Assembly: GCA_018819305.1 (NCBI GenBank)
Contig: JAHJQO010000044.1
Coordinates: 1 to 54,602, forward strand
DNA from: Nanobdellota archaeon
GTDB lineage: Archaea; Nanobdellota; Nanobdellia; Woesearchaeales; SM23-78
Direction of reading: 5' to 3'
Length of the DNA stretch: 54,602 nt
The notes beneath the pieces are model-generated. The model did not search any database. It was not told the DNA's origin and saw only the letters and a list, made by a program, of their open reading frames with translations. Below are positions 9,501-51,100 of this stretch, piece after piece. Within the stretch, counting starts at the first letter, position 1, and the number at the start of each line of letters is the position of its first letter. Position numbers and translations under genes: made by a program.

Positions 9501-9620
9501 CAAATTGAACATTTATATCACCAGTTTGATGACAGCACAAAAGAAATCCTGCATCCAACACTAACGGCATTGGGAAACAAGATTCAGATATTTATTGAAA
9601 ATGAAAAAGACAAGATATGA
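6561..9620 (+). CDS. Bitopic surface protein: N-terminal signal/TM, Ig-like and PKD-like repeats, C-proximal TM, helical cytoplasmic tail
   Basis: N-terminal hydrophobic segment IIFILLLLLYMMPVAA. Ig-like modules end in TWSVQCDT, TWHIICKDIANN and YWWNVECKDSAGK. PKD-like segment LNYTWHLSNGSTV..ITYGTAGNFTETIIVKDQYNN. TM helix IIFFLPILIILLGGLVFGAV, followed by about 130 aa of helical tail. Confidence 0.8.
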   Translation: MNKNILSGKSIIFILLLLLYMMPVAAEITLYAPDDEAFTNSNSVTFDYYLNINNTTNCKLIIDSIMNMSSMTLENPGFNSFTTNINPGAHTWSVQCDTLNATETSEQRYITVDVMEPTIVLFFPVNNTQINESNVDFNFVAIDNYGTELTCDILINNTIEKTVTVTNSEPEITNIDNIEDGTYTWHIICKDIANNSETSNTRIFRIDTTTQDPEFSITIPKQEYTPGEAGLMTISAPNGASIRVEICPDQSGFVECDVPVNAQNVMNYPFQEYLSFTNSAGKYILEALFNYSGYIETQMLHYEILNNIGIEIETDEVARRNVPFNMEADATGGLGTLNYTWHLSNGSTVKNKEVEITYGTAGNFTETIIVKDQYNNTNNQSIVIWVRDSVLIDILVKDSVRGTVLKDATVEIEDQQKITGTNGIVSFYVRTGMRKAMVLRENYSIFNEDLNITKAETFTIQLEPLEQANIPIVTLISPADKSQITGSSNDLKFKAEHSADLTCNVYINENNDGFFIDLGDVDVKDSSEKTFGVIELENKTYWWNVECKDSAGKTGTSSTWEFTVGAPSAEAVTLQQDPTEYAEYDEWVKEYEFILDTIEKLTKQEKEAADALGISGKIKDSIAVFKNTIRDLDGLQFRDDLTEEEKEAMRKELIINAEEAYQKTPVSFELVKSENYVDYIKKEELEALVDEYLELKGISEEVNKKKILAFLEALQQEVVISTTITNARLSYKDGSQKEITAVIRDVKVYNLTDGTVIIEIIPKEIIQSAQEVISAQEFKIIKDDPLISFGLKGDTKITYYFEKNIDLEQIKKIKTAVFIELEELSENQITGFAARSSGGPKIKIIFFLPILIILLGGLVFGAVRYNGIDTVKYALYKLQGQKSLHYINVILSDIHDHLDAGNHEQAIDLYDEAKGAYSELSTHAKNDVYENIVETAAKIQSHTQQTQTHEPGMNRIKEMIGNITTLLTNGELHPALEEYKQIEHLYHQFDDSTKEILHPTLTALGNKIQIFIENEKDKI

Positions 9621-9720
9621 TTAAGATATGATGTATAAGGTATAATAAATAAGGAATAAAATAAAAAAATAACATAAGAAAAAAAGAAAAAATAACATAA
9701 TAAATTATAAGGAATAAACA

Positions 9721-17345: not shown

Positions 17346-17939
17346 GTGATTGGCAACGAATTAGAGCAAGAAATAATTAGCCTGTACTCTAAAGATATTA
17401 GTTCTCTGTACAGCATAAACCAGATAGCTCACAGGCTGGGAAAAAAATATCCCTACATAAACAAAAAAGTAAGCTTTCTCATCAAACAAAAAATCTTCAA
17501 AAAAACAATCATTGGACGTTCTTATCTCTGCTCACTCAACCTGAACAATGATGAAACCATCTATCTTCTGATTCTTAATGAGATAAGAAAAAAGAAAGCA
17601 GAACTTGAGCTCAACCCTCAGCTGCAGGAAGTAATTGATTACACAGACAAAGCAAGGAAAATCATCAACCTTCAACTAGTGATTAAGAGCAAAGACACAA
17701 TCATGTTTGTGCTGCCAACAGCCGATGACAAGGAACAGTTTGAAAAAGCAATAGTAAAGCAAGTGATGAAAGATTTCAAAACCAGCATACTAAGCAAAGA
17801 AGAATTTCTCAAACAACTGCTGGACCAAAAAGAACTGCAGGAAAGACATGTGATTCTGCATGGCTATGAAAAATATTACGAGTGCATAAGAGAGATAGAG
17901 GACGAACTAAAACTAAGATATTCAAAACTAATACCATGA
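17346..17939 (+). CDS. Putative winged-helix DNA-binding protein
   Basis: The N-terminal YSINQIAHRLGKKYPYINKKVSFLIKQKIFKKTIIGRSYLCSLN resembles the wHTH N-domains of the MNT proteins at 37922 and 41086, but no GS..DxD nucleotidyltransferase motif follows. Its stop overlaps the start of the giant gene (ATGA at 17936-17939). Confidence 0.5.
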   Translation: MIGNELEQEIISLYSKDISSLYSINQIAHRLGKKYPYINKKVSFLIKQKIFKKTIIGRSYLCSLNLNNDETIYLLILNEIRKKKAELELNPQLQEVIDYTDKARKIINLQLVIKSKDTIMFVLPTADDKEQFEKAIVKQVMKDFKTSILSKEEFLKQLLDQKELQERHVILHGYEKYYECIREIEDELKLRYSKLIP

Positions 17940-34146: not shown

Positions 34147-34214
34147 AATAATATTAATATAATATTCAAAGGATATTAAAAGATTATTAAAATACTAAGG
34201 TGTGAGTGAAATTA

Positions 34215-34589
34215 ATGGCAAAAACAATTCTAATTGTGGATGACGAACCACATATGGTGGAGCTTGAAAAAGCAATTCTTGCAGCAGAAGGATACAAGAT
34301 AATCAGTGCTTTCAACGGCGAAGATGGCGTTAAGATGCTGGAAAAAAACAAGCCAGACCTTATTATTCTTGACATGATGATGCCTGGCATGAGCGGAAGG
34401 GAAACCTGTGAAAAAATCAGAAAAAACCCAAAAACCAAGAACCTAAAAATAATCTTTGTAACAGTGGCCAGATTCTCAGAAGTTGGAAAAGATACTCTCA
34501 AAAACATGGATGTTAACGACTACATAACCAAGCCTTTTGACAATGATGAATTTGTGTTCAGAATAAAAAAAGTCATAGGCGATAAATAA
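34215..34589 (+). CDS. Single-domain response regulator (CheY-like receiver)
   Basis: ILIVDDEP, phospho-acceptor context LIILDMMMPGMSG, and YITKPF. ATG 34215 preceded by AAGGTG is preferred over the GTG at 34206. Confidence 0.9.
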   Translation: MAKTILIVDDEPHMVELEKAILAAEGYKIISAFNGEDGVKMLEKNKPDLIILDMMMPGMSGRETCEKIRKNPKTKNLKIIFVTVARFSEVGKDTLKNMDVNDYITKPFDNDEFVFRIKKVIGDK

Positions 34590-34621: not shown

Positions 34622-37600
34622 TTATTTAAATCTTTTCTTATCTTTTTTAAACAATTGCAAATCTTCTTCTCCGCTCATCTTGCTATGAATGGGAACTGTA
34701 AAGTAAAATGTGGATCCTCTGCCAATAGTTGAAGTAACCCATAACTTGCCGCCCATGGCCTCAACAATTCCTTTACAGATAGCCAAGCCAAGTCCTGTTC
34801 CGCCAACCTTTCTTGTATAAGATGAGTCAACCTGATAAAATCTCCTGAAAATTTTGTTCAGGCTATTCTTTGGAATGCCTGTACCTGTGTCTTTGACAGA
34901 AAACATAACCTTGCTTCCTTTACGTGACGCAGAAACAATTATCCTGCTGCCTTTTTTAGGCGAATAATTAATAGCATTATTCACAAGATTAGCCAAAACT
35001 TGTATAAGCCTGCTCTTATCAGCATTAATGATATTTGGAACATTAGAAGCAGCATCAGCTTTGAGCACAAGGCCTTTTTTGCTGGCAGCAATATATAACT
35101 CCTTGACAAGAGACTTCAGCGCATCTCGCACATTTATCTCTTCAAACATGAACTTCATAGTGCCAAGGTCAAGCCTTGACAAATCAAGAATATCATTGAT
35201 AAGCTTTTTCAGCCTGTCTGCATCCTCCATAATAATACTCAGATAATATTCCCTTTGCTTTTTGTTCTCAAGAATCTTCTTGTTCTGCAGCAGACTTGCA
35301 AAGCCATGAATAGAAGTAAGAGGGGTCTTAAGTTCATGAGCAGTGACAGAGATGAACTCAGTCTTGGTCTTGTCCATTTTCTGAAGCTCAATGTTAGTTT
35401 TTTTAATGTCCTGGTTGATTTTCAAAATCTCTTTTTGGGATTTCTCAAGCTCTTCCTTGGAAAGATTAACATCCTCAAGAATGTTCAGGATAGCTGTTCG
35501 AGTGTCTTCAAGCTCGCTGATTTTCTTATTCAGTTCTTTGGTTCTTTGTTCAACCCTATGCTCAAGTTCATGAGTCAGTTTCTCAAGTTCATTGGTTCTC
35601 TGCTTAACAGTTTTCTCAAGATTGATATTAATAACATTTATTTCTTTTGTCTTAAGTAATACTTCTTTTCTTAAGTTTTTTGTCAGTAAAACTACAGCGA
35701 TTAACCCAACAATAATAATTGATATAATTGATACAAATGTAAATAACCACATATTCACTACAGTTTTTGATACTTCAGAAATAAATTCTTCTTCTTCAAT
35801 CTCTACCAATAAGCACCACTGCATTTCAGGGATATAAACATGAGTTCTAAAAACAGGCACCCCTCTGTAATCAGAAAAAACAGACACAGCATCATGATCT
35901 ATATGCTCTCCCGGGTGAGTCTCCATTGAAAGACAATTTCTTGAATTAATTGTGTCAACTTTCTGCTTTAATAACGCATCTTCTATAAATCTTGAATGTG
36001 AAATTATATAGCTTTCCTTATTTATCAAATAACTCACTACTGTTTCTCCTAAACCAGAAGCGTCTTGCATAATATTAGTTATACTCCTTCCCTCGAACGC
36101 TGCAACCACCACGCCTATTAATTCTCCATCTAAAATTAATGGTCCTGAAACATGAATTACTGGCTCACTTTTCTCAACAACAAATTCAGAAATATAAGCC
36201 CTTTTTTTTCCATTTATAAAAAAATCATTATCAGATACATCTTTCCCTTCAAAATCACTCTCAGTAGAAGATATAACCTGTCCATCCAAACCTACAATAC
36301 TAATTCTTTTAATATCAGACTCAGCAATCAAAACCTCTTTTATATTATTTCTTATATCCTCTTTATATGCCTCATCACCAGTATCAAGATAATTTTTTAA
36401 ATGAATACGCAGCCCTAATTTACTTGTAAGCAGATTAGACCTTTCTTCGTAAGATTCAAGAATTGCTCCAATATGATTTGCTTTTGACACAGCCACAGCA
36501 GTCAAAGAATTATACATAGACTTCTGTGCTTGTGCTTTCATATTCTCTGATGTAAAATATGCATTCAACAAAAATATTCCGATAAGCAACACAGCAAATA
36601 TGGTTAGTATGATTAATGCAGTGGTTGTTTTTTGCTTTAAAAAACCAAACTTAAATAAAGCCCCTGCAAAGAGACCTGCCATAATTATGGGAAAAATTAG
36701 CGGGATAATTGGGTTTCTGGCATTAAACACAAGTGTGGATAATGCGTGTGGAATAACCATTAGTGCTGACAACAGAAAAGCCAAAATAAAGAATTTCAGT
36801 TTTTTATCTTTTCTTGCAATATGCCCTATTAACAAAACAGCAAAAGAAATCACAACATACACGACAAGCACCAGTAATGCCACTGGAAACAAAATTCCCT
36901 GATTAAGCGCAATAGTGCCATATTTTGCCATGACATCAGGATTAATAATTGCTTCTTTGACAAACAGTTTTGTAAACATGACCAGCACAGCAACAACAAG
37001 GCTGACAAGATAAATCACCAACAAAACAGGTTTTTTGATTTCATGCTTTGCAACAGCAAACGCAGAAAGCATATAGTAAAAAACAAAAAGATAAACAAAG
37101 ACAATAACAAGACGCATTAAATAAAGGGATGTGCTTAAATTAAAAACATGCAATCTGACAACATAAGTCACAAGAAGAAGCATTGCAGAGACAATAAACA
37201 TAATGAAATTGAATTTTAAAGACTTGTTTGATTCCTCTTTTTTAATAGAAAACAAACAGAACAAATAAATTAAAAGACCAACAACTGCAATAATTAAATA
37301 AATATAATTTAGGTTAAAAAGTTCTTTTTCTTTTTCCTCTTCTTTAGAAAAGATTGATTTTTCTTCATATTCATCAAGATAAGTAGTAGCAGCAATATGC
37401 AGACCAACATCATCCGCAGTTTTTGCATTCACAATAGCAATATACATGTACTTCTGTTTTATGCTTCCATCAGCCTCTTCCCAATCATAAACACCGTCAG
37501 CTTCAACACCGCCCTTAGTTCTGGACATAACACCCCAAAAACCAGGAAGTTTTTCAGCCAGATTACTTAAGTCAACATCTACAATAGCAGGGTTCTTATG

Positions 37601-37888
37601 AAACCGGCATGTCAAAGTTTCATAATCAGTTATTGCAGTGTAACCTGTCTTGCCAACAGGCTGAACAGCAATCTCCTGAAAGTAAGCATCATCCTGCAAA
37701 TCTTTCAAAGTCTTATCAGGGTAAGAGTGCAAATAAATTTCAATCTGCCTAGCAACATCAATTGCTTTCTGCTTGATAGAATCCTCTGCAAAGGTTGATT
37801 TCTGCTCCTGAGCCATTACAGGAATAGATGAAAATAGGAACATAACTAAAAATAGAAATACAAAACACCTCTTTTTTGCTAATTTCAT
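34622..37888 (-). CDS. Multi-TM sensor histidine kinase with extracytoplasmic Cache-like domains
   Basis: Signal peptide, then a periplasmic-type domain (GYTAITDYETL...GVYDWEEADGSIKQKYMYI), then about 7 TM helices, a second sensor domain and a further TM. H-box FISVTAHELKTPL, N-box LVNNAINYS, G-boxes DTGTGI and GTGLGLAICKGIVE. Confidence 0.9.
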   Translation of the reverse strand: MKLAKKRCFVFLFLVMFLFSSIPVMAQEQKSTFAEDSIKQKAIDVARQIEIYLHSYPDKTLKDLQDDAYFQEIAVQPVGKTGYTAITDYETLTCRFHKNPAIVDVDLSNLAEKLPGFWGVMSRTKGGVEADGVYDWEEADGSIKQKYMYIAIVNAKTADDVGLHIAATTYLDEYEEKSIFSKEEEKEKELFNLNYIYLIIAVVGLLIYLFCLFSIKKEESNKSLKFNFIMFIVSAMLLLVTYVVRLHVFNLSTSLYLMRLVIVFVYLFVFYYMLSAFAVAKHEIKKPVLLVIYLVSLVVAVLVMFTKLFVKEAIINPDVMAKYGTIALNQGILFPVALLVLVVYVVISFAVLLIGHIARKDKKLKFFILAFLLSALMVIPHALSTLVFNARNPIIPLIFPIIMAGLFAGALFKFGFLKQKTTTALIILTIFAVLLIGIFLLNAYFTSENMKAQAQKSMYNSLTAVAVSKANHIGAILESYEERSNLLTSKLGLRIHLKNYLDTGDEAYKEDIRNNIKEVLIAESDIKRISIVGLDGQVISSTESDFEGKDVSDNDFFINGKKRAYISEFVVEKSEPVIHVSGPLILDGELIGVVVAAFEGRSITNIMQDASGLGETVVSYLINKESYIISHSRFIEDALLKQKVDTINSRNCLSMETHPGEHIDHDAVSVFSDYRGVPVFRTHVYIPEMQWCLLVEIEEEEFISEVSKTVVNMWLFTFVSIISIIIVGLIAVVLLTKNLRKEVLLKTKEINVININLEKTVKQRTNELEKLTHELEHRVEQRTKELNKKISELEDTRTAILNILEDVNLSKEELEKSQKEILKINQDIKKTNIELQKMDKTKTEFISVTAHELKTPLTSIHGFASLLQNKKILENKKQREYYLSIIMEDADRLKKLINDILDLSRLDLGTMKFMFEEINVRDALKSLVKELYIAASKKGLVLKADAASNVPNIINADKSRLIQVLANLVNNAINYSPKKGSRIIVSASRKGSKVMFSVKDTGTGIPKNSLNKIFRRFYQVDSSYTRKVGGTGLGLAICKGIVEAMGGKLWVTSTIGRGSTFYFTVPIHSKMSGEEDLQLFKKDKKRFK

Positions 37889-37921
37889 TTTTTATACAAA
37901 ACAGTTCCTTTTTCTTTAAAT

Positions 37922-38488
37922 TCAAAACAAGACCACATTATTCCTTAATATCTCCTTAATAAGAGGGTCTTTCTTCTTTAAATCCTTTTTATTAAAATAA
38001 TGTGTTTCTATATTTTTACTATATTTTTTTTCAATTTTGTGAATTGCCTGATTAACTAATTTCTTTAATTTACTGCTTTCTTGGTCAAAAAAAATAGCAA
38101 TATCCACGTCAGATTTATCAGTATATATCAGTTTGGCATAGGAGCCAAAAAGATAAGCTTTATGTATTCCTTGTATTTGGGATAAAGATGCACTTGAATC
38201 TATCAATGCAAAGTATACCTTTAATGGAACTTCCTTGAATCTTATGTGTTCACTTTTTATTATTCTTAAAATTTCATTAGCATGCTTATACTCAAAATTC
38301 ATAGAGTATAATCTTTTTTCTTGTTTTAATATTCCTGTCTTAACCAGCGTGCTTAATGCCTTATCTAAAGGAACATTATTTATTATAAGCTTATCCTTAA
38401 TCTCTTTTCTTTGAAATTTAGAACCTGAGCTAATGGAAACCAAGGTTAAAATTTTTACTATGTTCTTATCAAAAATTGCGGTTATCAT
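37922..38488 (-). CDS. wHTH + minimal nucleotidyltransferase (MNT-type antitoxin-like)
   Basis: YLFGSYAKLIYTDKSDVDIAIFF (GS...DxD) after an N-terminal winged-helix-like segment. It overlaps the HEPN gene by 4 nt. Confidence 0.8.
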   Translation of the reverse strand: MITAIFDKNIVKILTLVSISSGSKFQRKEIKDKLIINNVPLDKALSTLVKTGILKQEKRLYSMNFEYKHANEILRIIKSEHIRFKEVPLKVYFALIDSSASLSQIQGIHKAYLFGSYAKLIYTDKSDVDIAIFFDQESSKLKKLVNQAIHKIEKKYSKNIETHYFNKKDLKKKDPLIKEILRNNVVLF

Positions 38489-38967
38489 TTTTCCATAATT
38501 TTTCTTATTTTCTCCAGATAAATATCTGCATCACTCATAAATTCCTTTGCCATCCGCTCATATTTTTTTCTAATGAAATCTGTTCCTGTATAATATTGTA
38601 CCTTCACTCTTTCCTTCTTCGCATCGCTTAATTCATTTGCCAAATTCTTAAATTGTTCATAGCCTGCCTCTATCAACTTCAAGGTTTCCTTATCCTTAAT
38701 TAGCTCTCTAAGAACCTTGATTGTTGTTGCATGTACTTCTTGTTCTATTTTTAATCTATAAACCTTAGCAATCAGTAATTTGGAAATATCATGCATAGCA
38801 TAGTATCCTGAGATTATGCTCCATCTGGGAAATTCATTAACATTGGCTTTTGCATGCATAAGGTTATCTTTATAAGAATTAGTGAAAAAATCAGTATATC
38901 TTTCTAGCTCTGTCTCTTTAATCCTGCTAATTTTGTGTTCTCTGAACAAAATATCAAGTTTTACCAT
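38485..38967 (-). CDS. HEPN-domain protein (toxin-like partner of the MNT)
   Basis: WSIISGYYAMHDISKLLI....VHATTIKVL matches the HEPN helix pattern, and there is a C-terminal R-x-x-x-Q-Y-Y. Adjacent to a nucleotidyltransferase gene. Confidence 0.7.
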   Translation of the reverse strand: MVKLDILFREHKISRIKETELERYTDFFTNSYKDNLMHAKANVNEFPRWSIISGYYAMHDISKLLIAKVYRLKIEQEVHATTIKVLRELIKDKETLKLIEAGYEQFKNLANELSDAKKERVKVQYYTGTDFIRKKYERMAKEFMSDADIYLEKIRKIMEK

Positions 38968-39038
38968 TTTATTGGTACTAAATCGTTTTTATTTAAATAT
39001 TTTACCATTTTATTGGTAATTATAACACCAATCAATTT

Positions 39039-39095
39039 TCACTTCTTTCCCAACTGCTTTTCCAGCTCAGCAATCTTCTTTTTCAGCTCAACCAT
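39039..39095 (-). pseudogene. Copy D of a decayed sensor-gene 3' end (MVELKKKIAELEKQLGKK*)
   Basis: The minus-strand translation matches the C-terminus of the PAS protein and copies B and C. The upstream continuation (39096-39197) is interrupted by stop codons. Confidence 0.7.
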
Positions 39096-39197
39096 CCTCT
39101 TTTTTAACTCTTTAAGTCTTTTTTAGTCTTCTTCTCTAACTCAACAGCATTATTTATCTTAATTTATTCATCTCGTCTGGCTTCTCAAACTTATTCA

Positions 39198-40403
39198 TCA
39201 AACCTGCTTACTTATTGAAAATATGGGCCTGAATCTGACCTTGTTTTTTCTTCCAGATATTTGTTCGGAAACAATCAACGCGTCCTCAGGCTTATATTTA
39301 TTAAGGAAACTAAGGAATGACTTGGTGAATCTTGGATTTTTCAATCCAGATTTGACTTCAATTGGAAAAATGCCTGATTCTTTTTCAAGTACAAAATCTA
39401 CTTCTGCCTTGGACTTTGTCCTCCAGTATTTTAATTCATGCCCTTTCTTAGCAATCTCAGAAGCAGCAAAGTTCTCATACAGCGCACCTTTATCCTGCCT
39501 GTTCTTGATGGGCACAAAGTTCTTTAAGACTGTGTTCCTGAATCCATTATCTAAAAAAAATATTTTAGGAGCTTTTACAAGCTCTGTTCTTTTATTGGTG
39601 TAATAAGGCGTGCTTCTCAAACACACAAATGTTTTTTCAAGTATGTTCATATACTCTAATAAGTCATTATGCTTAAAGCCAGTGATGTCTGACAGCTCGT
39701 TATAATTTATGATATTTCCAACCTGCAGGGCAAGGGCTTTTATTAATTTGCTTAGCTTGTAATCATCTGGAAGGTTCAGGATTTCTTTGATTTCCTTCAG
39801 AAAGTAGGTATTATAGATGTTTCTTAGCACTGTTTGCTTTTCTTTTTTGTCTTTGCTCAGCACGATTCGAGGATAGCCTCCAAATATGCAGAATTCGTTA
39901 AAATGAGGCAGGATTTTTTGTATTATCTGAGGGGTTAGCTTTCTTTTCAGGTAGATGTCCTTATATATTGCTGGTTCCTTATAACTAAGGTATTCTTCAA
40001 ATGAGAATGGGTACAAATTAAATACAAATATTCTTCCAACCAGGTGTTTTATGCTTTGTATTGACAAGGCACTCGCAGATGAGCCAGAGATTATAAGCTT
40101 GGTTTTGTAGTTATCATAGATGTATTTCAGGTTTTTTCCGCCTTTAGTTGCGTATTGGAACTCGTCAATGAACAGGTAGTTATATTTCTTAACATACAGG
40201 TCTATGAATGATTTAATGTCATGGTTGAATAATTCAAGGGTTTCCCTGTCTTCAAAATCCAGAAAGAGCGCGTTTTTAAGGTTTTTGAATATGTGTTTCA
40301 GCAAGGTGGTTTTTCCGCACTGTCTTGCTCCTATAACTGCGACTATCTCTTTCTTGTTAAGATACTTTTTCAAGTCTTTTTCCAAAAACCTATTTATATA
40401 CAT
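39198..40403 (-). CDS. AAA+ ATPase of the COG1373 / DUF4143 type
   Basis: Walker A GARQCGKTTLL and Walker B YLFIDEFQY. The C-terminal third (..YENFAASEI...KYWRTKSKAEVDFVL) is typical of the DUF4143/restriction-fold tail. Confidence 0.8.
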   Translation of the reverse strand: MYINRFLEKDLKKYLNKKEIVAVIGARQCGKTTLLKHIFKNLKNALFLDFEDRETLELFNHDIKSFIDLYVKKYNYLFIDEFQYATKGGKNLKYIYDNYKTKLIISGSSASALSIQSIKHLVGRIFVFNLYPFSFEEYLSYKEPAIYKDIYLKRKLTPQIIQKILPHFNEFCIFGGYPRIVLSKDKKEKQTVLRNIYNTYFLKEIKEILNLPDDYKLSKLIKALALQVGNIINYNELSDITGFKHNDLLEYMNILEKTFVCLRSTPYYTNKRTELVKAPKIFFLDNGFRNTVLKNFVPIKNRQDKGALYENFAASEIAKKGHELKYWRTKSKAEVDFVLEKESGIFPIEVKSGLKNPRFTKSFLSFLNKYKPEDALIVSEQISGRKNKVRFRPIFSISKQV

Positions 40404-40486
40404 TTTAACCCTGCTAAAATTCCAATAACATAAATAATAGTTAGTTTGTTTATAAAGCTTTCGTTAAATCAGCTAAATTTATTTTT

Positions 40487-40537
40487 TCACTTCTTTTTCA
40501 ACTGCTTTTCCAACTCAGCAATATTCTTCTTCAACTC
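40487..40537 (-). pseudogene. Copy C of the decayed sensor-gene 3' end (ELKKNIAELEKQLKKK*)
   Basis: It directly abuts the TAA stop of the HEPN gene (40538-40540) and is in frame with it. Copy C (40487-40537) plus the adjoining promoter-like tract 40449-40486 closely matches 41726-41820 at the DNA level. Confidence 0.7.
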
Positions 40538-41104
40538 TTATTCTTCCAGCACTCCCCTGACCTTATTAATGAATTCTGCTGTCTGCTTCTGCATATTTTT
40601 TGCCTGTAACAATTCAAAAGATTTGTCTGCGCCGTAGCACGCTTCCTCCCTTAACTTCTTTGAATCAATTATTGTGTCAATATCTTCTTTTTCAAGATGC
40701 ATCTTTTCAATTATGAACTCTATCTCCTTTTTTTCAAGTATATTGTCTTTATGATAATAAAATAGTATGAGTGTAGTTATTGTTGCAAGATGATTCTTTG
40801 ATTCATAACCTAATCTGGATATTAAAGCGAGCGAAGCATGATAAATAGAATAATAAAATATTGTGACGCACCAATCATAAAACGACTTTCCTTTTAGCTT
40901 CTCTTTTATAGAATGCTCGTGTTCTTGCAATATAAAATTCGCAAATTCCAGGTTGTGCAGTGCTTTGTTAAGATGCCTGCCAAATAATTCAGGCTCAATC
41001 TTGTTTATAACATTTATACTGATGAAATGTTTGAATATGTTCTCACAGTAATTCTTGTTCCCGATCAGTCTCTGGATGTCAATTTTCACTTCAGAAACCT
41101 CCAT
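40538..41104 (-). CDS. HEPN-domain protein
   Basis: HLNKALHNLEFANFIL...DWCVTIFYYSIYHASLALISRLGYESKNH and C-terminal LREEACYG fit the HEPN pattern. It overlaps the upstream MNT gene by 19 nt. Confidence 0.7.
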   Translation of the reverse strand: MEVSEVKIDIQRLIGNKNYCENIFKHFISINVINKIEPELFGRHLNKALHNLEFANFILQEHEHSIKEKLKGKSFYDWCVTIFYYSIYHASLALISRLGYESKNHLATITTLILFYYHKDNILEKKEIEFIIEKMHLEKEDIDTIIDSKKLREEACYGADKSFELLQAKNMQKQTAEFINKVRGVLEE

Positions 41105-41679
41105 AATAAAGAATAGTATAACTCCACGCCAGACATAATTATTACTTGGCGCCTTATTTCTTTTGAAAAATCATGCTCTTTGTCCAAAAAATTGGTTTCA
41201 AAATTCTTATAATCCAAATATATGGGACTGAGCAGAGTATTGGTTCTCATACTAATTTTTTTTGCAGAATTCTTTATTTGTTTTTCATCTTCCACTTTTT
41301 GAAACACTAATAGGATGTCTATATCAGAAACAGATGTGTAGCTGCCTTTTGCATAAGAACCGAATATTAATGTTAATAATGGTTTTACATCAAGATCATT
41401 TATTAAGTCCTGGACTGCGTATTGCACCTTTTTTGGCAGGGAAAGAAATTTCTCAGTGTTTACCTGTTTTAAGTATGCTGTTGTTTTCTGACCTTGTTTT
41501 AGCATAACCTTTACTAAGTTGCCGTCTTTTTGTTTCATGACAACACCTTCTTTTTCAAGAATGCTTACATTCCTCACTATGTTTGGAAGCCCTGTTTTTA
41601 CCTGTCTTGACAATTCTCTAAGATGTACGCCTCTCTTATGCTCGTCCAGCACCGTTATCAGTTTTAGCTTAGTATTCAT
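41086..41679 (-). CDS. wHTH + minimal nucleotidyltransferase (MNT-type)
   Basis: LIFGSYAKGSYTSVSDIDILLVF (GS...DxD). N-terminal HLRELSRQVKTGLPNIVRNVSILEKEGVV is winged-helix-like. Confidence 0.8.
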   Translation of the reverse strand: MNTKLKLITVLDEHKRGVHLRELSRQVKTGLPNIVRNVSILEKEGVVMKQKDGNLVKVMLKQGQKTTAYLKQVNTEKFLSLPKKVQYAVQDLINDLDVKPLLTLIFGSYAKGSYTSVSDIDILLVFQKVEDEKQIKNSAKKISMRTNTLLSPIYLDYKNFETNFLDKEHDFSKEIRRQVIIMSGVELYYSLLWRFLK

Positions 41680-41755
41680 TTTGATATCTTTTTGTTATCG
41701 ATTGATAAGTTTATGTTATCAGTACTTTATAAAGCTTTTGTTAAATTAGCTAAAT

Positions 41756-41873
41756 TTATTGTTTTTGTTTACTTTCCAACTGCTTTTCCAACTCAGCAAT
41801 CTTCTTCTTCAACTCAACCATTCGAAGCTCTCTGCCAACAGACATCTTCTGGAATTTCTCAAGCTCATCAACC
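41756..41873 (-). pseudogene. Copy B of the decayed sensor-gene 3' end (VDELEKFQKMSVGRELRMVELKKKIAELEKQLESKQKQ*)
   Basis: The minus-strand translation aligns with the last 35 or so residues of the PAS protein (ERFQKMAVGRELVMVELKKKIKELEEKLISS*). It begins exactly where the ATPase gene stops (TGA at 41868-41870). Confidence 0.75.
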
Positions 41874-43148
41874 TTGAAGTAACCATAACCACAATGGCTT
41901 AAATATTATTTTCTTATTATCAAATTCCTCCTCACCAGAGAAATCATCTGTTATTATTAACCCTTTTTTTATTTTAAACGCATTCATTGCTTTAAGCAAG
42001 GCTTTTATTTCTCTTTTTTTAACATCTTGGTTATTAAGGTTATAACAAACCTGAATTAGTTCTTTAATCTTCAACCCTTTCTTTATCACAAAGTCTACTT
42101 CTTCCTGCTGCTTTGATTTCCAATAATAAATCTCATTATTCTTCCTTTTTAATTCGAGAAAAACAAGATTCTCGTATAATTTTCCAAGATTTGAACTAAA
42201 TTGAAAGGCGATGATATTTGCTAAACCAACATCAGCACAATAAATTTTTCTTGGATATTGTAAGTGGTCTTTTATTTTATAAGAGAAAATTGGAACCTGA
42301 GTTATAAGAAATGCATTTTCTATATAATTTAAGTAGGATGTTACTGTAGTAGGTGATAAACTAACCAAAGATGCTAATCTTTTGTAGCTATGTAAAGATG
42401 ATATGTTTGAAAGAATGTACCTTGCTAAATCTTTTACTTTCCTTTCTTCCAGGTTATATCTTGCAATAATATCCTTATCAATAATGTTATTATAATACTC
42501 TACTAAAATTCTATGCTTCTCTTTTTCCAGCACCACTTCCGGAAAGCCCCCATACATAAGATATTCTTTTAATAAAGCCTTGATTTTTGCTTTCTGCCTT
42601 TTTGTAATAAACTTTAAGTTGTAATCAAATTTTTTAAAGCTTAAAAATTCTTTAAAACTCAGCGGAGTAATCAAGAAGCTTAACTGCCTTCCAGTCAATA
42701 AAGAAGCATAATCTGATAATAGCAGAGATGAGGAAGAACCTGAAATGAATATCTGTTTAAATTTTTTTAAATCATATTGGGTTTTAACCCAGAATTCCCA
42801 CTTATTTCTATGTTGAATTTCATCTATGAATAAATAAATTCCTCCCTCTGGAAAAACATTTTCAAAATATGACTCAATTATTTTATCAAAATCTGCTTCT
42901 AACAAAGCCTCATCTTCCATATTTATAAATAGTATATTCTCTGGCTTTGCTTTGGTTAAGAGTTTCTCAATTATTTGATATAAAATAGTAGATTTACCGC
43001 TTCTTCTGATACCTGCAAGAGTTTTTATTTGTTTCAGGGAAAGTAAATTAGTTATTTCTTTGGTTTTTTCTCTATTAATTCCAGATAAGTCCTTAATATT
43101 CCCTTTGGCCCACCAAATGTTCCATTCTTTCAGGTTTTCAAATACCAT
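41868..43148 (-). CDS. AAA+ ATPase of the COG1373 / DUF4143 type (second copy)
   Basis: Walker A GIRRSGKSTILYQI and Walker B YLFIDEIQH. The C-terminal ..YENLVFLEL...YYWKSKQQEEVDFVI parallels the 39198-40403 protein. Confidence 0.8.
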   Translation of the reverse strand: MVFENLKEWNIWWAKGNIKDLSGINREKTKEITNLLSLKQIKTLAGIRRSGKSTILYQIIEKLLTKAKPENILFINMEDEALLEADFDKIIESYFENVFPEGGIYLFIDEIQHRNKWEFWVKTQYDLKKFKQIFISGSSSSLLLSDYASLLTGRQLSFLITPLSFKEFLSFKKFDYNLKFITKRQKAKIKALLKEYLMYGGFPEVVLEKEKHRILVEYYNNIIDKDIIARYNLEERKVKDLARYILSNISSLHSYKRLASLVSLSPTTVTSYLNYIENAFLITQVPIFSYKIKDHLQYPRKIYCADVGLANIIAFQFSSNLGKLYENLVFLELKRKNNEIYYWKSKQQEEVDFVIKKGLKIKELIQVCYNLNNQDVKKREIKALLKAMNAFKIKKGLIITDDFSGEEEFDNKKIIFKPLWLWLLQG

Positions 43149-43250
43149 CTTTGAGAGTTATTCACACCCATTTATAAAAGTTTCCATCAAATTGGACTAT
43201 TTTGATTGAAATCATCCATTCAACTGGACGATTTATTAGGTTCCTACTTA

Positions 43251-44924
43251 TTAACTACTTATTAACTTCTCTTCCAACTCCTTAATTTTCTTCTTAAGTT
43301 CGACCATAACAAGCTCCCTTCCAACAGCCATTTTCTGGAATCTCTCAAGCTCTTCTGTTCTTTGCTTCATAGATGCTTCAGCTTCTTTCACCTTAGTTAT
43401 ATCCTCTACAAAAAGCGTGACTTGCTCTATTTTCCCAGTCTTATCTCTGATAGGCAAGCCAGTAAAATTCCTCACGCTTCTTTTCTTGCCAAAACTTGAA
43501 ATATATTCAACAGTTTCTATGAAAAAAGGTTTGCCTTTAAGACATTCTTTAATTTTTTCAGACAAACCAATCTTAACATAAGTAGAAAGTTTCAATAAAT
43601 TCAAGCCAATAAATTTCTTTGCATCACTGCCAGATATCATCAGCATCGCCGGATTAATATATTCAACAATTCCCTTATTATTAAGAGTAATAACGCCAAA
43701 AGGAGCATTCTCAATCAAATCAGACCTGGATTGATATGCTTTTAAGAGTTCTTGGTGTTCTTTCTTTTGCTCGGTAATATCTCTAACTGTTGCTTGCAGC
43801 AATTGTTTACCCTCCAACTTCATTCTAGTAAGCAAAACAGTCGCAGGAAAACTTTCACCCTTATACCTCTTATGAGTCCACTCAAAAAAATTAGAACCCT
43901 CCTTCATAGCTTTCATAATCATAGCCTTAGCTTTATCAGAAGACAACTGACCATCAGGCTGATACTCAGGAGAAACATCTCCTGGACCCAACGAAACAAA
44001 CTGCTTCTCATCCTTAGTCCTAAACATCTCAACAGTAGCTCTATTACCAGAAGTAAACCTCCATGACGGAGGAGCAAGAGTCATAATAGCATCCCTAGAA
44101 GAATCAAACAAAATCCTATATTTCTCCGCTGTTTTTTTCCTCTTAGTAATATCTCCTCCTGAACTCAAATGACCGATAATCTTCCCTTTTGCATCTTTCA
44201 TTTCAATATTATGCCACGCAATAAGTCTCTCCTGACCACTTTTCGTCAAGACAGGATTCTCATAATACTCTAAAGGCTTAATTTTACCAGCAAGTATTTG
44301 CTTAGAAATCTCTTTCACTTGTTTTCTTAATCTTATTGGAAGAAAATTATCAAACCAATTCTTGCCAACAATCTCTTCTTTTTTATATCCTAAAATCTCG
44401 CAGCCTTTTTTGTTAATACGCGTTACTTTTCCTTTAGTATCAATTGCAATGAGCATAACACCAGCAATATTAAAATATCTATCCGCAGTTTCCTTTTGCT
44501 TCCGCATTTCATCTTCTGATTTCTTCTGCTCAGAAATATTCCTACAAACCGCAACCAAACCTTTTCTCTTGCCTTTAGAATCCTTAAACACACTAACATT
44601 AACATAACTAAAAAACTCTTTACCATCTTTTCCTTTTGCAAGGTACTCGCCTTCCCAAAAACTCCGGGATTTTAGAATCTTCACAATCTGCTGTCCTAAT
44701 TTCACATGGCTCACAGAAGTTGAAAGTGTTAAAACATTTTTACCAAGAACTTCTTTGGCTTTCCACCCGTAAAGCTTTTCAGCAGCCTTATTCCAATAAG
44801 TGATTCTACCTACTAAGTCTGTGACTATAATAGCTTCATGAATTTGATTTAAGAGAAACAAGGGTAAATCATGTTGCTTCACAATCTCACTATTCTCAGA
44901 ACTCTTCTTTTTAACCATCCTCAC
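43251..44924 (-). CDS. Multi-PAS domain signalling protein with no recognisable output domain
   Basis: About four PAS-like units (for example ITYWNKAAEKLYGWKAKEVLGKNV, VTRINKKGCEILGYKKEEIVGKNW and IVEYINPAMLMISGSDAKKFIGLNL), ending in the coiled-coil FQKMAVGRELVMVELKKKIKELEEKL. Confidence 0.85.
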   Translation of the reverse strand: MRMVKKKSSENSEIVKQHDLPLFLLNQIHEAIIVTDLVGRITYWNKAAEKLYGWKAKEVLGKNVLTLSTSVSHVKLGQQIVKILKSRSFWEGEYLAKGKDGKEFFSYVNVSVFKDSKGKRKGLVAVCRNISEQKKSEDEMRKQKETADRYFNIAGVMLIAIDTKGKVTRINKKGCEILGYKKEEIVGKNWFDNFLPIRLRKQVKEISKQILAGKIKPLEYYENPVLTKSGQERLIAWHNIEMKDAKGKIIGHLSSGGDITKRKKTAEKYRILFDSSRDAIMTLAPPSWRFTSGNRATVEMFRTKDEKQFVSLGPGDVSPEYQPDGQLSSDKAKAMIMKAMKEGSNFFEWTHKRYKGESFPATVLLTRMKLEGKQLLQATVRDITEQKKEHQELLKAYQSRSDLIENAPFGVITLNNKGIVEYINPAMLMISGSDAKKFIGLNLLKLSTYVKIGLSEKIKECLKGKPFFIETVEYISSFGKKRSVRNFTGLPIRDKTGKIEQVTLFVEDITKVKEAEASMKQRTEELERFQKMAVGRELVMVELKKKIKELEEKLISS

Positions 44925-45164: not shown

Positions 45165-48100
45165 TTGAGCAGAATGTTAAGAGATAAATCTAAAGATATA
45201 GCTAAATACAAAATCACATTTCTATTTTTCAATCTTATCATAAGACTATTTTCCAATTTAACATCCAATTTCTCGTCTAATTCATCAACTAACAAATCAA
45301 ATAATAAACATCATGTTTTTTCAATTAAGGGCTGCGTCCGCTCTAGCTCAGCGTGGAAAACTTTCTGGAAGGGCGCAGCTTCTTTTTTATTTTTATTAAT
45401 ACTCCTACTGCCATTCACATCAGCACAAAGCATAGCCCTTGACAAAAGCATCTACGGCCTGGATGACATAGTCAAGATTAAAATCACAAACATAACAGAA
45501 AACATCTCCTTAACCATTTTATCAGAAGAAAATGTGTACAAATACTCAGGAGAGCTGGAACAAGAACTGGAATTTTATGCAAGAGAATCAGGAGATTATA
45601 TTGTCAGGCTGAGTGACAATGGCAATCTGATAGATGAAGTAAGCTTTACTGTGCTCAAATATTATTTAGTAAATGAAAACATTCTCACAACAGACAAAAC
45701 AGAATATCTTGTGAATGAGCCAGTTCTCATATACATCACTACAACAGAAACAAATGTTTCTGAGCAGTCACAAGCGACTACAACAGGCGACTTTGAACTG
45801 GCAGTCATCTCAGAAACAGAAGTTTTCAAATACCTCGACATAATAAACAGTCCCTTGCCATTCATACCTCAAGAACCCGGCAATTACAGAATAGAACTAA
45901 GAAAAGACTTCAAGCCAATAGCAACAACAGAATTTATTGTCACAGAAGAAATATTTGATCAGGATAAACCAATTCCAGAACAAGAGAATATCATAACAGA
46001 ACTTATACCCCCAATTACAACTCCTCTTCCAGAAGAAAAGCTGCCTTTCACACTCAACTTAAATGACAAGAGAGGCCAAAAAAAAGAAAGCAGCGGGCGT
46101 GTTATCAAACAAATAACAAATGATGATGAGACTTATGATACTTACAACATAGAAATTTATCCAAACAAAGCAAATATACAAAAAATTCAGTTCAATAATC
46201 TCAAAGCAACCTCAACTCAAGAAGAAAACTTTGACCTTGATGAAATAGACATAAAAAGAAATGAGATAGAAACCAGCTTCAAAGGCAAAAAAGTAATCAA
46301 CTCTTTCTTCATAGACACATCTTCTCTTGATTATACAGAAGGAACAATAACCAGCATTGCTTCAGGAACAGAGCTCTGGAAATGCAAAGACTGGGACAAG
46401 ACTACCTTATCATGCATGGGTTCATGGAAGAAAATTGCAGACATCACACCTAGACAAGAATATAACATAACAATAAATGCAACAGACCCTGCATATGCAG
46501 AAACAGGAGTGGCAAGCATTAACACAAAAAAACCCATTTATCATCCTGGTGAAACAGCAGAAATAATAATTGTAGTTCTTGACACCGAAGGTTATCTTGT
46601 GAGTTATGCAAATGTCACCCTAACCATAACCAAGCCTGATGAAATAGCAAACACATTCTCAACAAGCGCAGGAACAATAACAGAAATAAGCAGAGGAATA
46701 TATGAAACTACTTACAACAGAATAGATATTGAAGGCAGCTATGAAATGTTTGTAAGAGCAACAGGACTCAATGTTGACAGCACCATGCTTTCAAGCTTTG
46801 AAGTAAAAACATTTTATGAATTTGATATTCTCAGAGAAACACCTGTAACCATCAATCCCTGGAAAGGACCATTTTTCTCCTCTATAAACCTAATAAAATA
46901 TATCAACACAGACAATTTCAACTATACAGAAAGACTTCCTGTGAATTTCACTGTGATTGATGCAGGCACAGGATTAGTTACCCAAGGATTAGAATATACT
47001 GAGATAAAATGGATTAATCTAAACAATAATTCTTTTGTTTATTATTTAGCAAAAGCTCCATTAGTAACACCTGATTTATATGAAATCGGTCCTTCTTACA
47101 TTGACTACAATATAAATAATACAAATAAAGAATTCACAGAAGCAAGGCCATGGTACATGGCAATAGACCCTGCAAACTATCAGGTAAATGCAACAACATG
47201 CTATAAAATGGTAAGTACCACAACTGATAACACTTATACCACTGCTTGTTCCATACCATGGAATATTGACTCTGAAGATGGCAGCACACAAAACGACGGA
47301 CAGTCAGCAAAAAAATACTCTGGAATACAAACAACCAATGACCTAACTCCGGACAGATGTATGGATATAAACAAAGTTGATGTTTGCGTTGACTGGTGGT
47401 ATACTGCAACAATTGATTCATGTATTGGAGTTGATTTCTCAGCAACAGGAACAGGAGGAACATGGTATACTGTGGCAAACAGCAGCTGCCCAGGCAGCAA
47501 CGGGCCATTGGCATGTTCTGATGTTACTGGCACTGTGTCATGGAATTGTAATTCATTTTCAAGTGCAAACGCAGCAATAAGAACACATCTTTACACTAAG
47601 AACGCAGGAACAACTTATATTGATGCAGTATTCTTCAGGATTGACTACTCTTCTTATCCTGTTCTCGAAGGAAGCGTAACTAATGATGGTCCAGTGGAAG
47701 CAGAACAAGACATAACATTTTCTGGAACCTGCAGTGATTATGATACAGGAGACAGTTATAAATTAGTGGTATGTAATGCATCTGTTTCAACATGTGATGA
47801 CAGCACAACAGGAAGCGATTTAATTTGCAAAGGAACTCTTGGAACCAGCAACCCAAGAAACTGCACATACACAACCACATCAATAGATATAGGCACGAAT
47901 ACTGGAGACAAAGCAGTTTGCTGCGACAGTGAAAGTTATTGCACCCCAACACCAACAATTATTAATGACTGGGAAGTCACACCATTTTCAGGACCTCCAA
48001 CAATAACAATTAATTCTGTAAGCGGAGACACCGCACCTGTTTATGTTTTTACCGACCAGACTCCAATAGTGAATGCCACACTTAATGTCGATGGTTACTG

Positions 48101-51100
48101 CTATCTAAGTGAATTTGACGAGAACTTTACACAAATGATGGAAGCAGGCAGAGTGTACTGTGGATTTTACACAAACAATGTTCAAAAAAATTGCGAATAC
48201 ACAAACACTTTCAGCGCAAGCAATGGAACAAATGATTTCTTGTACATGTCATGCAACAACACAGCAGGAGGAGAAAATAATAACAGCAACAATGCCAATA
48301 TGGAACTGGATGTTTTATGCGACACTCACACAGACTGCGCACTAGAAAGATATTGCAGAGCATCAACCCAGCACTGTGAACTAGATATTATTTATGGATA
48401 CACTTGTGAAAACATAGCTTATGGAGGTGGAGAAGACAATGAAGTGTGCGGCGACGGAACAAACAAATACTGTGTGAATGATTCAACTTACAGTTACACT
48501 GGCTGGTATTGTACAGCAGATACAAATGATTGTGTTTATAACAACAACGGATTTTCCTACGACCTTGGAGAAACTCTTTGTGTAGGTGGAACAAATGATT
48601 ATAGAAACTGCAGCACAATCAATGAATGGGGTTCACTGTTTGACTGCGCAGAACAATATGATATAGATGCCTCTTCTCAAACTGCAACCTACCATGCAGG
48701 AGAATACTGCGCATATTATGCCGCAGCCCAGACCTGTGTAAATGGAATAAGCGGAGGATGCTCAGGCACTTCAACAGACTGTACCTCCTATATTTACAAC
48801 CAGACAACACAAGCATGCGGAAGCCTAGTGGCAGACTGTGATATGGGATGCGGAGCAACATGTGACCCAAGCAACAGCACAACACCAGAACTTGATAGTG
48901 GAATTTGTTATTATGACAAAACATGCAGCAATGCGTGTGCATGGTCAGAAAACAATGAAGAAGCACCAGACTTTTGCATCAATGACAATAACGGAGGTTC
49001 ATGCGGATACTCAGACAGAACAAATCCAAATGCAACAGGAACCTGCTACTGGAATCCAACCTGTGCAGATGTAACAGGAGCAAGCTTGACTTCAGGATTT
49101 CTCAACAACCTAAAATCTAACTACTGCGATTACTGCACTGCATCAGGAAATCAAAGCGGACAATTTGCTCCAGCACCAAATGCATCCTGCTCATCAGGAT
49201 GCGCTGACAGCGAAACAATATATTATGACAGCGGCCTGACACCAAGCGACAGAAGTGATGACTGTGGCAGCGGAACAGGAACCAGCACAATTCTCAGCGA
49301 CACTCTTACAATAGGAGATATATGGACTGGCAGCGCGCCTGCTTATTGTGATGACACAGAATGCGACTCTGATTGTGGAACAATGGTGGGAACCTGTGTT
49401 GGTGGCGCAGGAGGAACATGCACTTGTGTTGATAATGACAACCCAATATTAAAACTAAAAGAGCCGGCACCAGGAGCATGGGACACAGACGGAACAATAA
49501 TTTTTACTTATAATGTAACAGACATTAGTTCAGGAATAGAAAACTGCTCATTAATAATTAATGGAAGCATTAACATGACGAATTCGTCGGTAAATGAAAG
49601 CGTGCAAACACAATCATTCACACAAAATTTTGTTAACGGAACATACAATTGGAGCATAATATGTTATGATAACAGTACAAATTACAATATGAACCAATCC
49701 AGCAGCAGAATTGTCGGAGTTGACACCACACACCCGCAACTAAGCAATCCAAATATCAATGGCACTGCATTTGACATCAACACACATGTCTGCCTGAATG
49801 TAACAGTAACAGACACATTTTCAGGAACAGACAAAGTATGGGCCAAAATTGACAGACCAAACCCAATACCTGATGAAAACATAACATTATCAGACGACCA
49901 AACCACATCCTGCGACCAGACAAATGGCGATAATGTTTATTCTGTTGAATACCAGCTTGTTTTTTCTGGAACATATAACTGGACAATAGCTTATGCAAAT
50001 GATAGTGCCAGCAACCAAAACAACCTAATAGCAGACCTAGACTGGACTGTTACAGCAGCAGGAGATTTGGTTGTAAGTATGCTTTCCCCAATTGTTGATT
50101 TTGAAATAAATGAATCTGAATCCAATAATAATTTCACAATGACATGTAATGCAACATGCAACCCTGGGCTTGAAAACTGTTCAAATGTTTATTTGTTTGC
50201 ACAATATATTCCCAGCAGTGATTATGATATAACCACTATAACAACTGACTTGATAAATGCAGAAGATAATTTCAGCTGTGGCGACATGGAACAAGGAGGT
50301 ACATATTGCATTCACACATTTAATATTACTTCTGGAAGTGACTCAGGAAACAACATCTGGCCAATAAGATGTAAAGCAATCAGCAGCAACAGCCCAACAA
50401 CATTTTCCAGCACAGTTGATTTGACAATCAATGACCATCCATATGCAAATATTTCTTATCCACAACACAGCACATGGATTACAGGAATAATAACAGCAAA
50501 TGCTTCATTAAGCTTTGACTCAGACGGCACTGTTGACAATTATTTGTTTGAATATGACAACAACACAGATTTCAATTCACCCGGCACTCTCTGTGATGGA
50601 GCCAGTGCAACCTGTGTTTGGAATACTGCACAACAAAGCCAATGCGACAACAATTCAATGTCCTGCTATCTAAGAGTCACAATAATTGATGACAACGGAC
50701 TGACCAACAGTTCATATATACTATTTGGAATTGATAATCAAGGTCCAACCACAACTCTTGACAGACCAATAAATTTTGAAAACATAACAACAGACTTATT
50801 CACTGTAAATGCAACTTCATCAGACAGTGAAACAGAAGTAGACACAGTAACATTTGAATACAGAAAAAACAACACAGACACATGGACATTTGCATGCAAT
50901 GATAACAGAGACCCAACTTATGACTGTGAATTAGATATAAGCAGCTGGCCTGACGGAAACACATATGAATTCAGAGCCTATGCAAATGACACAATGGGGA
51001 ATATAGGGAATTCTGATAATCACACAAACATAACCATTGACAGAACAGCACCAGTAATAAAACTCGAAAACCCGCCAGACAATAATTATACTGCAAATAC

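Follow-up and report, generated by a model that had tools for sequence, protein, structure and literature searches.

We analysed a 54,602-nt stretch of contig JAHJQO010000044.1 from a Nanobdellota archaeon, a probable member of the DPANN archaea. This whole stretch is referred to below as the window, and all coordinates are window positions. On its minus strand, 5.3 kb of defence-type genes lies between a PAS-domain sensor gene and a histidine kinase gene, and three start-less copies of the 3' end of a PAS-tail gene are interspersed among four gene cassettes. The cassettes encode ATPases of the AAA_14/DUF4143 type, and pairs of a winged helix-turn-helix MNT nucleotidyltransferase (wHTH-MNT) and a HEPN protein. 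In 5' to 3' order on the minus strand, followed by a plus-strand neighbour, the features are:

43251-44924, minus: PAS sensor gene with three to four PAS domains (Pfam PAS_9/PAS_4/PAS)
43149-43250, minus: intergenic region before ATPase1, with a TATA box TTTTATAAA at about 43171-43179, read directly from the sequence
41868-43148, minus: cassette 1, ATPase1, with AAA_14 and DUF4143 (PADLOC candidate PDC-S01; Walker A motif GIRRSGKST)
41756-41873, minus: tail fragment A, start-less and corresponding to the final 38 codons of a PAS-tail gene (tail hidden Markov model score 72 bits)
41680-41757, minus: tract after the stop codon of A; the part common to B is 41726-41757 with a B recognition element (BRE)/TATA AAAGCTTTATAAA, followed by MNT1 operator-like palindromes beginning TACTGATAACATAA
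40538-41679, minus: cassette 2, wHTH-MNT1 (41086-41679) and HEPN1 (40538-41104), overlapping genes of a conserved DPANN two-gene module
40449-40537, minus: fragment B (40487-40537, 16 codons and a stop codon) and the common tract with a TATA (40449-40486), before ATPase2
39198-40403, minus: cassette 3, ATPase2, with AAA_14 and DUF4143
39039-39095, minus: fragment C, translating as MVELKKKIAELEKQLGKK before its stop codon, about 100 nt past the ATPase2 stop codon
37922-38967, minus: cassette 4, HEPN2-like (38485-38967) and wHTH-MNT2 (37922-38488), overlapping genes
34622-37888, minus: seven-transmembrane (7TM)-dCache-HisKA-HATPase histidine kinase, likely the partner that originally followed the PAS-tail gene
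34206-34589, plus: response regulator gene, beyond the histidine kinase

Fragments A, B, and C are 118, 51, and 57 nt long, respectively. All three are start-less, lie on the same strand as the PAS gene, and each follows a different, unrelated cassette; two of them (A and B) abut the preceding stop codon. The 3' end of the PAS open reading frame (ORF) translates as ...ERFQKMAVGRELVMVELKKKIKELEEKLISS before the stop codon, a 35-aa helical tail, with the repeat copy lying inside the gene at approximately 43251-43355. Fragment A translates as VDELEKFQKMSVGRELRMVELKKKIAELEKQLESKQKQ, its first codons overlap the ATPase1 stop codon in a frame that differs from that of ATPase1, and its altered stop region gives rise to the extension ESKQKQ. 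The C-terminus of ATPase1 is complete, with positions 9-408 of the 412 in profile PDLC04787 aligning with residues 22-425 of 426. Fragment B begins at the base after the HEPN1 stop codon, in frame with HEPN1 behind a TAA. Read-through or frameshift fusions of the fragments to their upstream genes were considered and rejected, in view of the different frame of A, the TAA in front of B, and the distance of C from the ATPase2 stop codon. Each cassette has its own predicted BRE/TATA 25-50 nt 5' of the start codon. The layout, coordinates, and translations given in a first-pass annotation of this DNA proved exact on re-reading. Its statement that a copy of the gene end bounds each cassette failed for cassette 4 (HEPN2-MNT2), after which no tail copy is present, leaving a total of three fragments and the intact end.

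Nucleotide alignment of the four copies, proposed in that annotation, indicated repeats far beyond chance. A 27-mer from the core, AAGATTGCTGAGYTGGAAAAGCAGTTG, occurs three times in the window with at most one mismatch, against 0.00 occurrences expected, and the 32-nt tract after the stop codon occurs twice, again against 0.00 expected. The blastn identities were 88.9% over 90 nt (A/B), 88.9% over 54 nt (B/C), and 91.8% over 49 nt (A/C), and the 39-nt core is identical at 38 (A-B), 36 (A-C), and 35 (B-C) positions (90-97%). The three core differences between A and C are all synonymous, which fits copies that diverged while still serving as the ends of working genes. Along the tail, B and C start at nearly the same point (within 6-9 nt). 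The intact PAS end stands apart, sharing 28-29 of the 39 core positions (72-74%) with A, B, or C. Against fragment A it is 78% identical over 100 nt and 82% identical upstream of the core, with no identical run longer than about 10 nt. All four copies agree without interruption over at most 5 nt, extending to GAGYTGGAA if one degenerate position is allowed.

Beyond the stop codon, A and B remain alike for 39 nt (92%, including the BRE/TATA), up to the TATA, and then diverge. Their 90-nt repeat passes the stop codon into non-coding DNA, implying that a piece of the genome was duplicated, not merely a coding motif. The first-pass annotation had described a promoter-like tract common to two gene-end copies and had taken every cassette to be bounded by a gene end and a promoter; the common tract was borne out for A and B, and not for the PAS end and C, whose downstream sequences differ. 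The 43149-43250 intergenic region showed no match to the tract of A and B, to which it is unrelated. A remnant riddled with stop codons had also been described over the ~100 nt upstream of C. Its similarity to the tail was not significant, as 34/1000 and 143/1000 shuffled sequences scored as well.

The cargo is of the defence/toxin-antitoxin type that had been suggested for it. Both ATPases consist of AAA_14 followed by DUF4143, well above the Pfam cut-offs, and match PDC-S01 with E = 1.5e-111 and 6.5e-92. Both nucleotidyltransferases are wHTH-MNT proteins (PADLOC PDC-M05A/S09; Pfam NTP_transf_2/Polbeta), in which the GS...D.D nucleotidyltransferase motif was read as GSYAKGSYTSVSDIDIL. HEPN1 matches Pfam HEPN, and HEPN2 is weakly HEPN-like (PADLOC HEPN_IX, E = 0.006; BLAST to HEPN1, E = 2e-4). 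In this family in general, HEPN proteins are RNase toxins, kept in check by their MNT partners. The cargo is predicted to be made up of independent modules with a TATA each, namely two PDC-S01-type DUF4143 ATPases and two MNT/HEPN pairs. The protein identities between corresponding genes are 32% (ATPase1/2), 30% (MNT1/2), and 26% (HEPN1/2). Recent tandem duplication of whole cassette units was rejected on this basis, since the fragments agree at 35-38 of 39 nt while the proteins are only 26-32% identical. At 38968-39040, a 19-nt direct repeat TACCAATAAAATGGTAAAA duplicates the start region of the HEPN2-like gene on both sides of a TATTTAAATA box.

The MNT1 family has more than 240 homologues. 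Among the 120 listed, identities range from 60 to 71% and nearly all proteins are 191-226 aa long; where a name is given, the assembly is one of Nanoarchaeota, Woesearchaeota, or Pacearchaeota. MNT1 and HEPN1 are co-conserved in eight independent DPANN loci (MNT1 62-71%, HEPN1 49-69% identity). No PAS-tail fragment was found at any of these eight loci, which shows that the repeated end is local and not carried by the cassette. DUF4143 ATPases, 38-39% identical to ATPase1, are present in two of the eight and absent from the other six. The earlier idea that the ATPase and the MNT/HEPN pair might form one functional unit finds no backing in this pattern, as the ATPases are not co-conserved, and on sequence grounds the combination is a defence-island neighbourhood, not a conserved unit.

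Conserved counterparts of the TATA and TACTGATAACATAA palindromes that follow fragment A are present in the L090 MNT promoter, and by this comparison these elements belong to the MNT cassette. Palindromes of the TGATAAC/GTTATCA type lie between the TATA and the MNT1-family start codon in the window (41680-41725), L090 (5975-6020), L088 (5940-6000), and L095 (6950-7000). Their conservation suggests that MNT1 probably regulates its own promoter by binding them through its wHTH domain. At another locus, L086, a 409-aa RRXRR and HNH (IscB-like) gene (6942-8171) splits an otherwise conserved pair, with MNT on one side and HEPN on the other.

The repeated end corresponds to a tail with the consensus ELE[KR]F.K..VGREL.M[VI]ELKK.I..LE..L and a stop codon within 20 residues, for which there is no Pfam model. 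The same tail forms the C-terminus of 34 of the 120 best PAS homologues, which end 20-42 aa past the GRE motif. A tail profile search of 80 genome loci from many bacterial and archaeal phyla returned 102 tails, all 102 within 60 residues of a stop codon. For 62 of these 102 tail-ending genes, a HisKA/HATPase gene starts no more than 3 kb downstream on the same strand. The tail also terminates non-PAS sensors and small proteins of 105-157 aa. It is a widespread natural C-terminus of sensor proteins, occurring in many bacterial and archaeal phyla, and may act as a docking helix of split sensor-kinase pairs. As the tail is always terminal and a kinase gene follows in 62 of the 102 cases, the 5.3 kb of defence genes interrupts a conserved two-gene unit. 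Two or more full-length tail-ending genes stand in tandem at 16 of the 80 loci, with tails identical at up to 35-39 of 39 nt. No start-less tail relic shorter than 50 aa was present among these 80 comparison loci.

One of these loci, L022 (Deltaproteobacteria metagenome-assembled genome, 7272-11531), places the same gene families beside the same signalling unit in a bacterium. There, genes for a DUF4143 ATPase, a wHTH-MNT, and a HEPN protein immediately precede a 145-aa ORF that comprises a 5'-truncated PAS domain (PAS_3 model positions 36-88 of 89) and the tail, and this ORF is followed by a short HisKA kinase and a response regulator. A second tail copy was not found near the 145-aa ORF.

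We searched the window for traces of a dedicated recombination system. No integrase-family Pfam match was obtained in any scanned ORF of the 54.6 kb, in agreement with the first-pass annotation. When both strands of the three fragments were folded as DNA, neither a long hairpin nor an attC-like structure emerged (z from -1.5 to +0.8), and the fragments contained no Rfam family. The tail lacks a T-run terminator, and a sigma-70 promoter/terminator scan showed no enrichment, with a bacterial model that is inappropriate for an archaeon. No further copy of the tail repeat was found in the window, and the 37889-43250 interval contained no PAS-domain or other 5' relic. A 23-mer from the core gave no matches in the GTDB genomes or in IMG/VR, and the single match in JGI metagenomes lies inside a LysR regulator gene and was dismissed as chance; the source lineage is absent from these collections, which makes this a weak negative. 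No relatives of the tail, the MNT family, or ATPase1 were detected on IMG/VR viral contigs.

Exact-protein look-ups of PAS, ATPase1, and the kinase retrieved the same array in five assemblies, including that of the window, at 99.97-100% identity. The four other contigs carry the same 10-16 kb structure and come from four separate samples or assemblies, three being 100% identical and one having 3 mismatches. Since the array was assembled alike in all four, it is not an assembly artefact. Neither an empty site, an alternative allele, nor an excised form was found among the five assemblies, which all represent one clone. The first-pass annotation had named the same locus without cassette-level variation and without extra copies elsewhere as evidence against its proposal. 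Such invariance is indeed what we observed; it carries little weight because all the contigs belong to a single clone. Outside this clone, the closest PAS homologue is only 45% identical.

A comparable layout that draws on different local gene ends recurs at several of the eight DPANN loci with MNT1-HEPN1 homologues. L088 and L095 are clear cases, and L086, L097, L102, and L103 less certain ones. In L088, the promoter and signal-peptide-encoding start of a downstream 1015-aa gene recur in five copies (55-115 nt, 79-84% identical), which separate a PIN gene, a PIN/ribbon-helix-helix (RHH) pair, an MNT-HEPN pair, and another small gene. In L095, the last 146 nt of an upstream 897-aa gene recur 4.2 kb downstream with 88% identity, directly before the MNT-HEPN promoter. 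This copy terminates a chimeric ORF of 461 aa that begins with a copy of the 5' end of a downstream giant gene, a junction that would be expected from head-to-tail joining of two alleles of one hotspot. A second array is present on the minus strand of the window itself, where a leader of ~100 nt with T-runs and a TATA, ...CGAATTTGATTGTTTTTTTCTGGTTTTTT...TTTATAAA, appears three times (995-1165, 2985-3130, and 3640-3800); a 29-mer from it has 3 matches against 0 expected. A leader stands before each of three toxin-antitoxin pairs:

358-1001, minus: MazE and PemK
2495-2990, minus: DUF2683-like and ParE
3117-3637, minus: DUF4258 and MazE-like

Four further loci, L102 (GCA_964365455.1, 3079-14562), L097, L093, and L103, have open ORFs of ~70-170 aa between their defence cassettes, nine of them in L102. 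These ORFs copy a signal-anchor and coiled-coil module (ALTS.ER.SL..EL.NLT..L...GY.WL), which also occurs in L095 and forms the N-terminal part of giant surface proteins; the copies are 45-82% identical and mosaic. They may have been left behind by displacement of 5' ends or may represent a genuine family of small proteins, and we counted them as suggestive. The clean parallels are limited to L088, L095, and the second array of the window. No tyrosine or serine recombinase of the integrase families was called near the other DPANN arrays.

Two side observations concern the surroundings of these loci. Diversity-generating retroelements adjoin the MNT-HEPN arrays of L093 (3325-3448/5392-5515) and L097 (11458-11588/12828-12958). 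They comprise bAvd, a reverse transcriptase, and an FGE-sulfatase-type target, with template and variable repeats 87-90% identical. In the window, as in the other DPANN loci examined, giant predicted surface proteins flank the defence arrays (6561-13638, 17882-27379, and 45165-54269; 1019-3165 aa). They contain CARDB, Big_13, and PKD domains, and one has a HerA-like ATPase segment.

We propose, with moderate confidence, that the 5.3 kb is an accretion array, formed at the boundary between the PAS-tail and kinase genes by serial displacement of a gene end, in a process that is not that of an integron and is probably guided by homology. Defence and toxin-antitoxin cassettes would have been added at this boundary one by one. 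Each addition would be a recombination within the last 50-120 nt of the sensor gene, reaching for two events (those of A and B) into the adjoining promoter as well. The incoming DNA would bring its own copy of the gene end, so that the sensor gene stays intact while the previous end is pushed downstream as a start-less fragment. Such an event might be the integration, by a single Campbell-type crossover, of a circle derived from part of a variant allele of this locus, or an unequal crossover between two variant alleles of the locus. With a circular or allelic donor of this kind, host recombination would suffice, and homology-guided mechanics without a dedicated integrase appear most likely. 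The variable fragment lengths, the A/B repeat running past the stop codon, the local, genome-specific nature of the repeated ends, the L095 junction, and the lack of a recombinase all favour this route.

Several observations weigh against this proposal. The PAS end is 74-82% identical to A with identical runs of at most ~10 nt and would be a poor substrate for homologous recombination, so at least the cassette 1 event would require another route or a donor from a distant lineage. The locus is represented by a single clone, with no empty site, alternative allele, or excised form and no closer PAS homologue to compare. Two of the junctions fall exactly at stop codons, which is tidier than random illegitimate joining predicts. 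The small repeated ORFs of L102, L097, L093, and L103 are all open and have a common conserved motif, and may be real genes. Finally, tandem full-length tail genes with near-identical tails are common, which keeps alive an explanation by gene loss.

That explanation, the best of the alternatives and in our judgement an unlikely one, regards the fragments as relics of tandem paralogues. Four PAS-tail genes would once have preceded the kinase gene, and three would have been overwritten by defence genes, leaving their last 51-118 nt and downstream promoters, with no duplication of a gene end. The tandem tail genes at 16 of the 80 loci provide a precedent, the 78% identity between the PAS end and A is what paralogues would show, and the synonymous-only differences between A and C fit formerly functional genes. 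The L022 trio also fits, as it abuts a 5'-truncated PAS-tail ORF beside which no duplicate of the tail was seen. Three independent replacements would nevertheless be needed, each removing the promoter, the start, and >90% of the gene yet sparing the 3' end. No 5' or PAS-domain remnant survives in the interval, and the 80 comparison loci hold no comparable start-less relic. Gene loss also sits poorly with the uniform polarity of the copies, which are 3' ends only here and 5' ends only in L088, and with L095, which is a duplication junction and not a simple truncation.

The next alternative, likewise unlikely and ranking behind gene loss, is classical site-specific integration, in which the tail would be the attachment site of small integrative or mobilisable cassettes served by a tyrosine or serine recombinase acting in trans, from elsewhere in the genome or from a helper element. 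The first-pass annotation had put forward serial integration of this kind. Its account of the layout holds, with an intact gene end, partial copies downstream, and defence cargo, and the topology is identical to that of serial integration leaving partial target copies, as in tycheposons (10.1101/2020.12.28.424599). The gene end is restored after each event. The nearly coincident starts of B and C and the two junctions exactly at stop codons, as in compact cassettes, are in keeping with such a process, and a need for matching over just a short core would make the divergence of the PAS end less puzzling. Site-specificity as such was not shown: no recombinase was found in the 54.6 kb, the copies are unequal in length (118 nt for A versus 51-57 nt for B and C), and no identical core longer than 5 nt is common to all four. 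Moreover, the tail, the MNT family, and ATPase1 were not found on IMG/VR contigs, and MNT-HEPN homologues occur elsewhere without the tail. The other DPANN arrays repeat quite different sequences, which would call for many specificities, yet no integrase-family recombinase was called nearby.

We consider it improbable that the fragments were kept for a function and are not scars, whether as promoter-upstream or insulator elements serving the next cassette or as mini-ORFs such as MSVGRELRMVELKKKIAELEKQLESKQKQ or MVELKKKIAELEKQLGKK. Function would account for the retention of copies, not for their origin. The 39-nt core is far better preserved than the sequence upstream of C, a TATA lies within ~30 nt of the tail stop codon in A and B, the leader of the second array combines T-runs and a TATA, and natural small tail proteins of 105-157 aa exist. 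On the other hand, B is just 16 codons long and lacks a plausible start codon, each of the three fragments starts at a different tail position, and neither a T-run terminator, an Rfam match, nor a predicted stable fold was found in them.

An integron-like cassette array with the tail copies as attC sites, also raised in the first-pass annotation, is very improbable and effectively refuted for the features examined. Compact cassettes are indeed separated by repeats, and toxin-antitoxin genes are common integron cargo (PMC9668308), but integron features were absent: the fragments form no attC-like hairpin on either strand, the window encodes no IntI, the repeats are homologous to the coding end of a neighbouring gene, and each cassette has its own predicted TATA-containing promoter. 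To an assembly artefact stringing strain variants together, as a hotspot-like region in a metagenome-assembled genome might invite, we give almost no credence, since four other contigs from separate samples or assemblies have the same structure and the fragments differ in length and by point changes.

Extended beyond the window, serial displacement of gene ends leads to a broader and more tentative proposal, which we rate as possible and not as probable. DPANN archaea might assemble and reshuffle their defence islands by integrase-free accretion of cassettes, using resident gene ends as portable homology or attachment sites: in the window the 3' tail of a sensor gene, and at other loci the signal-peptide-encoding 5' region of genes for giant surface proteins. 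Each acquisition would leave a copy of the gene end, and these copies would let cassettes pop out and in. The process would be an archaeal counterpart of Rhs (rearrangement hotspot) tip displacement for whole defence operons. The question touched here is how streamlined, host-dependent DPANN archaea with few recognisable mobile elements gain and exchange defence genes. If the gene-end copies are acquisition scars, they would constitute a record of the order of events that can be read from the sequence, and would offer a simple way to delimit cassettes and to discover new defence genes in uncultured archaea. The displacement principle of bacterial Rhs and contact-dependent growth inhibition (CDI) loci would then apply to archaea and to ordinary genes as well. 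Should the array be a relic of lost paralogues, it would represent ordinary gene decay inside a defence island.

In limited searches, we found no literature description of such DPANN arrays. The closest likeness is to the Rhs/CDI loci, in which start-less pieces of the conserved 3' region of a gene, variable in length and each standing before different genes, lie in an array behind the intact gene. For the displacement of Rhs C-termini, homologous recombination with a circular intermediate, without an integrase, has been proposed to explain the core fragments of variable length (Jackson et al. 2009, PMC2935791). The present array differs in that the displaced gene encodes a PAS signalling protein in an archaeon and not a toxin, and in that the conserved end itself is displaced, with fragments that end at the normal tail stop codon and have no variable toxin tip. 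The genes after the fragments are free-standing defence and toxin-antitoxin operons with their own promoters, whereas those in Rhs/CDI loci are cognate immunity genes. Between the intact end and the nearest fragment the identity is only ~78%; in a given Rhs locus, by contrast, the core fragments are reported to match the main gene exactly. A further difference is the mirror-image form with copies of 5' ends in related genomes.

Tandem accretion of integrative and conjugative elements and cis-mobilisable elements (ICE/CIME) occurs at the 3' end of fda in Streptococcus thermophilus. In serial site-specific integration of this type, which also produces tandem islands at tRNA genes, newer elements push older ones away from the target gene, partial copies of the target lie between them, and degenerate elements without an integrase persist; tycheposons are a further case in which serial integration leaves partial target copies (10.1101/2020.12.28.424599). 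The array described here differs in the lack of an integrase or integrase remnant in the window, the small size of the cassettes (1.1-1.3 kb), the inconstant repeat lengths, and the nature of the repeat, a protein-coding tail found on no viral contig in IMG/VR. Archaeal integrons and integrase-less attC clusters (CALIN) are known, including in Nanoarchaeota (PMC9668308), and resemble the array in their compact cassettes between repeats and their typical toxin-antitoxin and defence cargo. No attC structure, IntI, or attI is seen here, and the repeats derive from a neighbouring gene. The cassettes here have their own predicted promoters, in contrast to integron cassettes, which mostly lack one and are expressed from a platform promoter.

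The descriptions of MNT-HEPN type II/VII toxin-antitoxin modules (PDC-M05 and PDC-S09) and of DUF4143 ATPases (COG1373, PDC-S01) apply to the cargo and not to the array, and MNT1-HEPN1 is a tightly conserved DPANN subfamily of the MNT-HEPN modules. Both the families of the cargo genes and, as a principle, the displacement of gene ends or serial integration have been described before. What appears to be new is that the displaced gene is an ordinary archaeal signalling gene, that the cargo consists of whole defence operons, and that comparable arrays, including the mirror-image 5'-end form, recur in DPANN defence islands.

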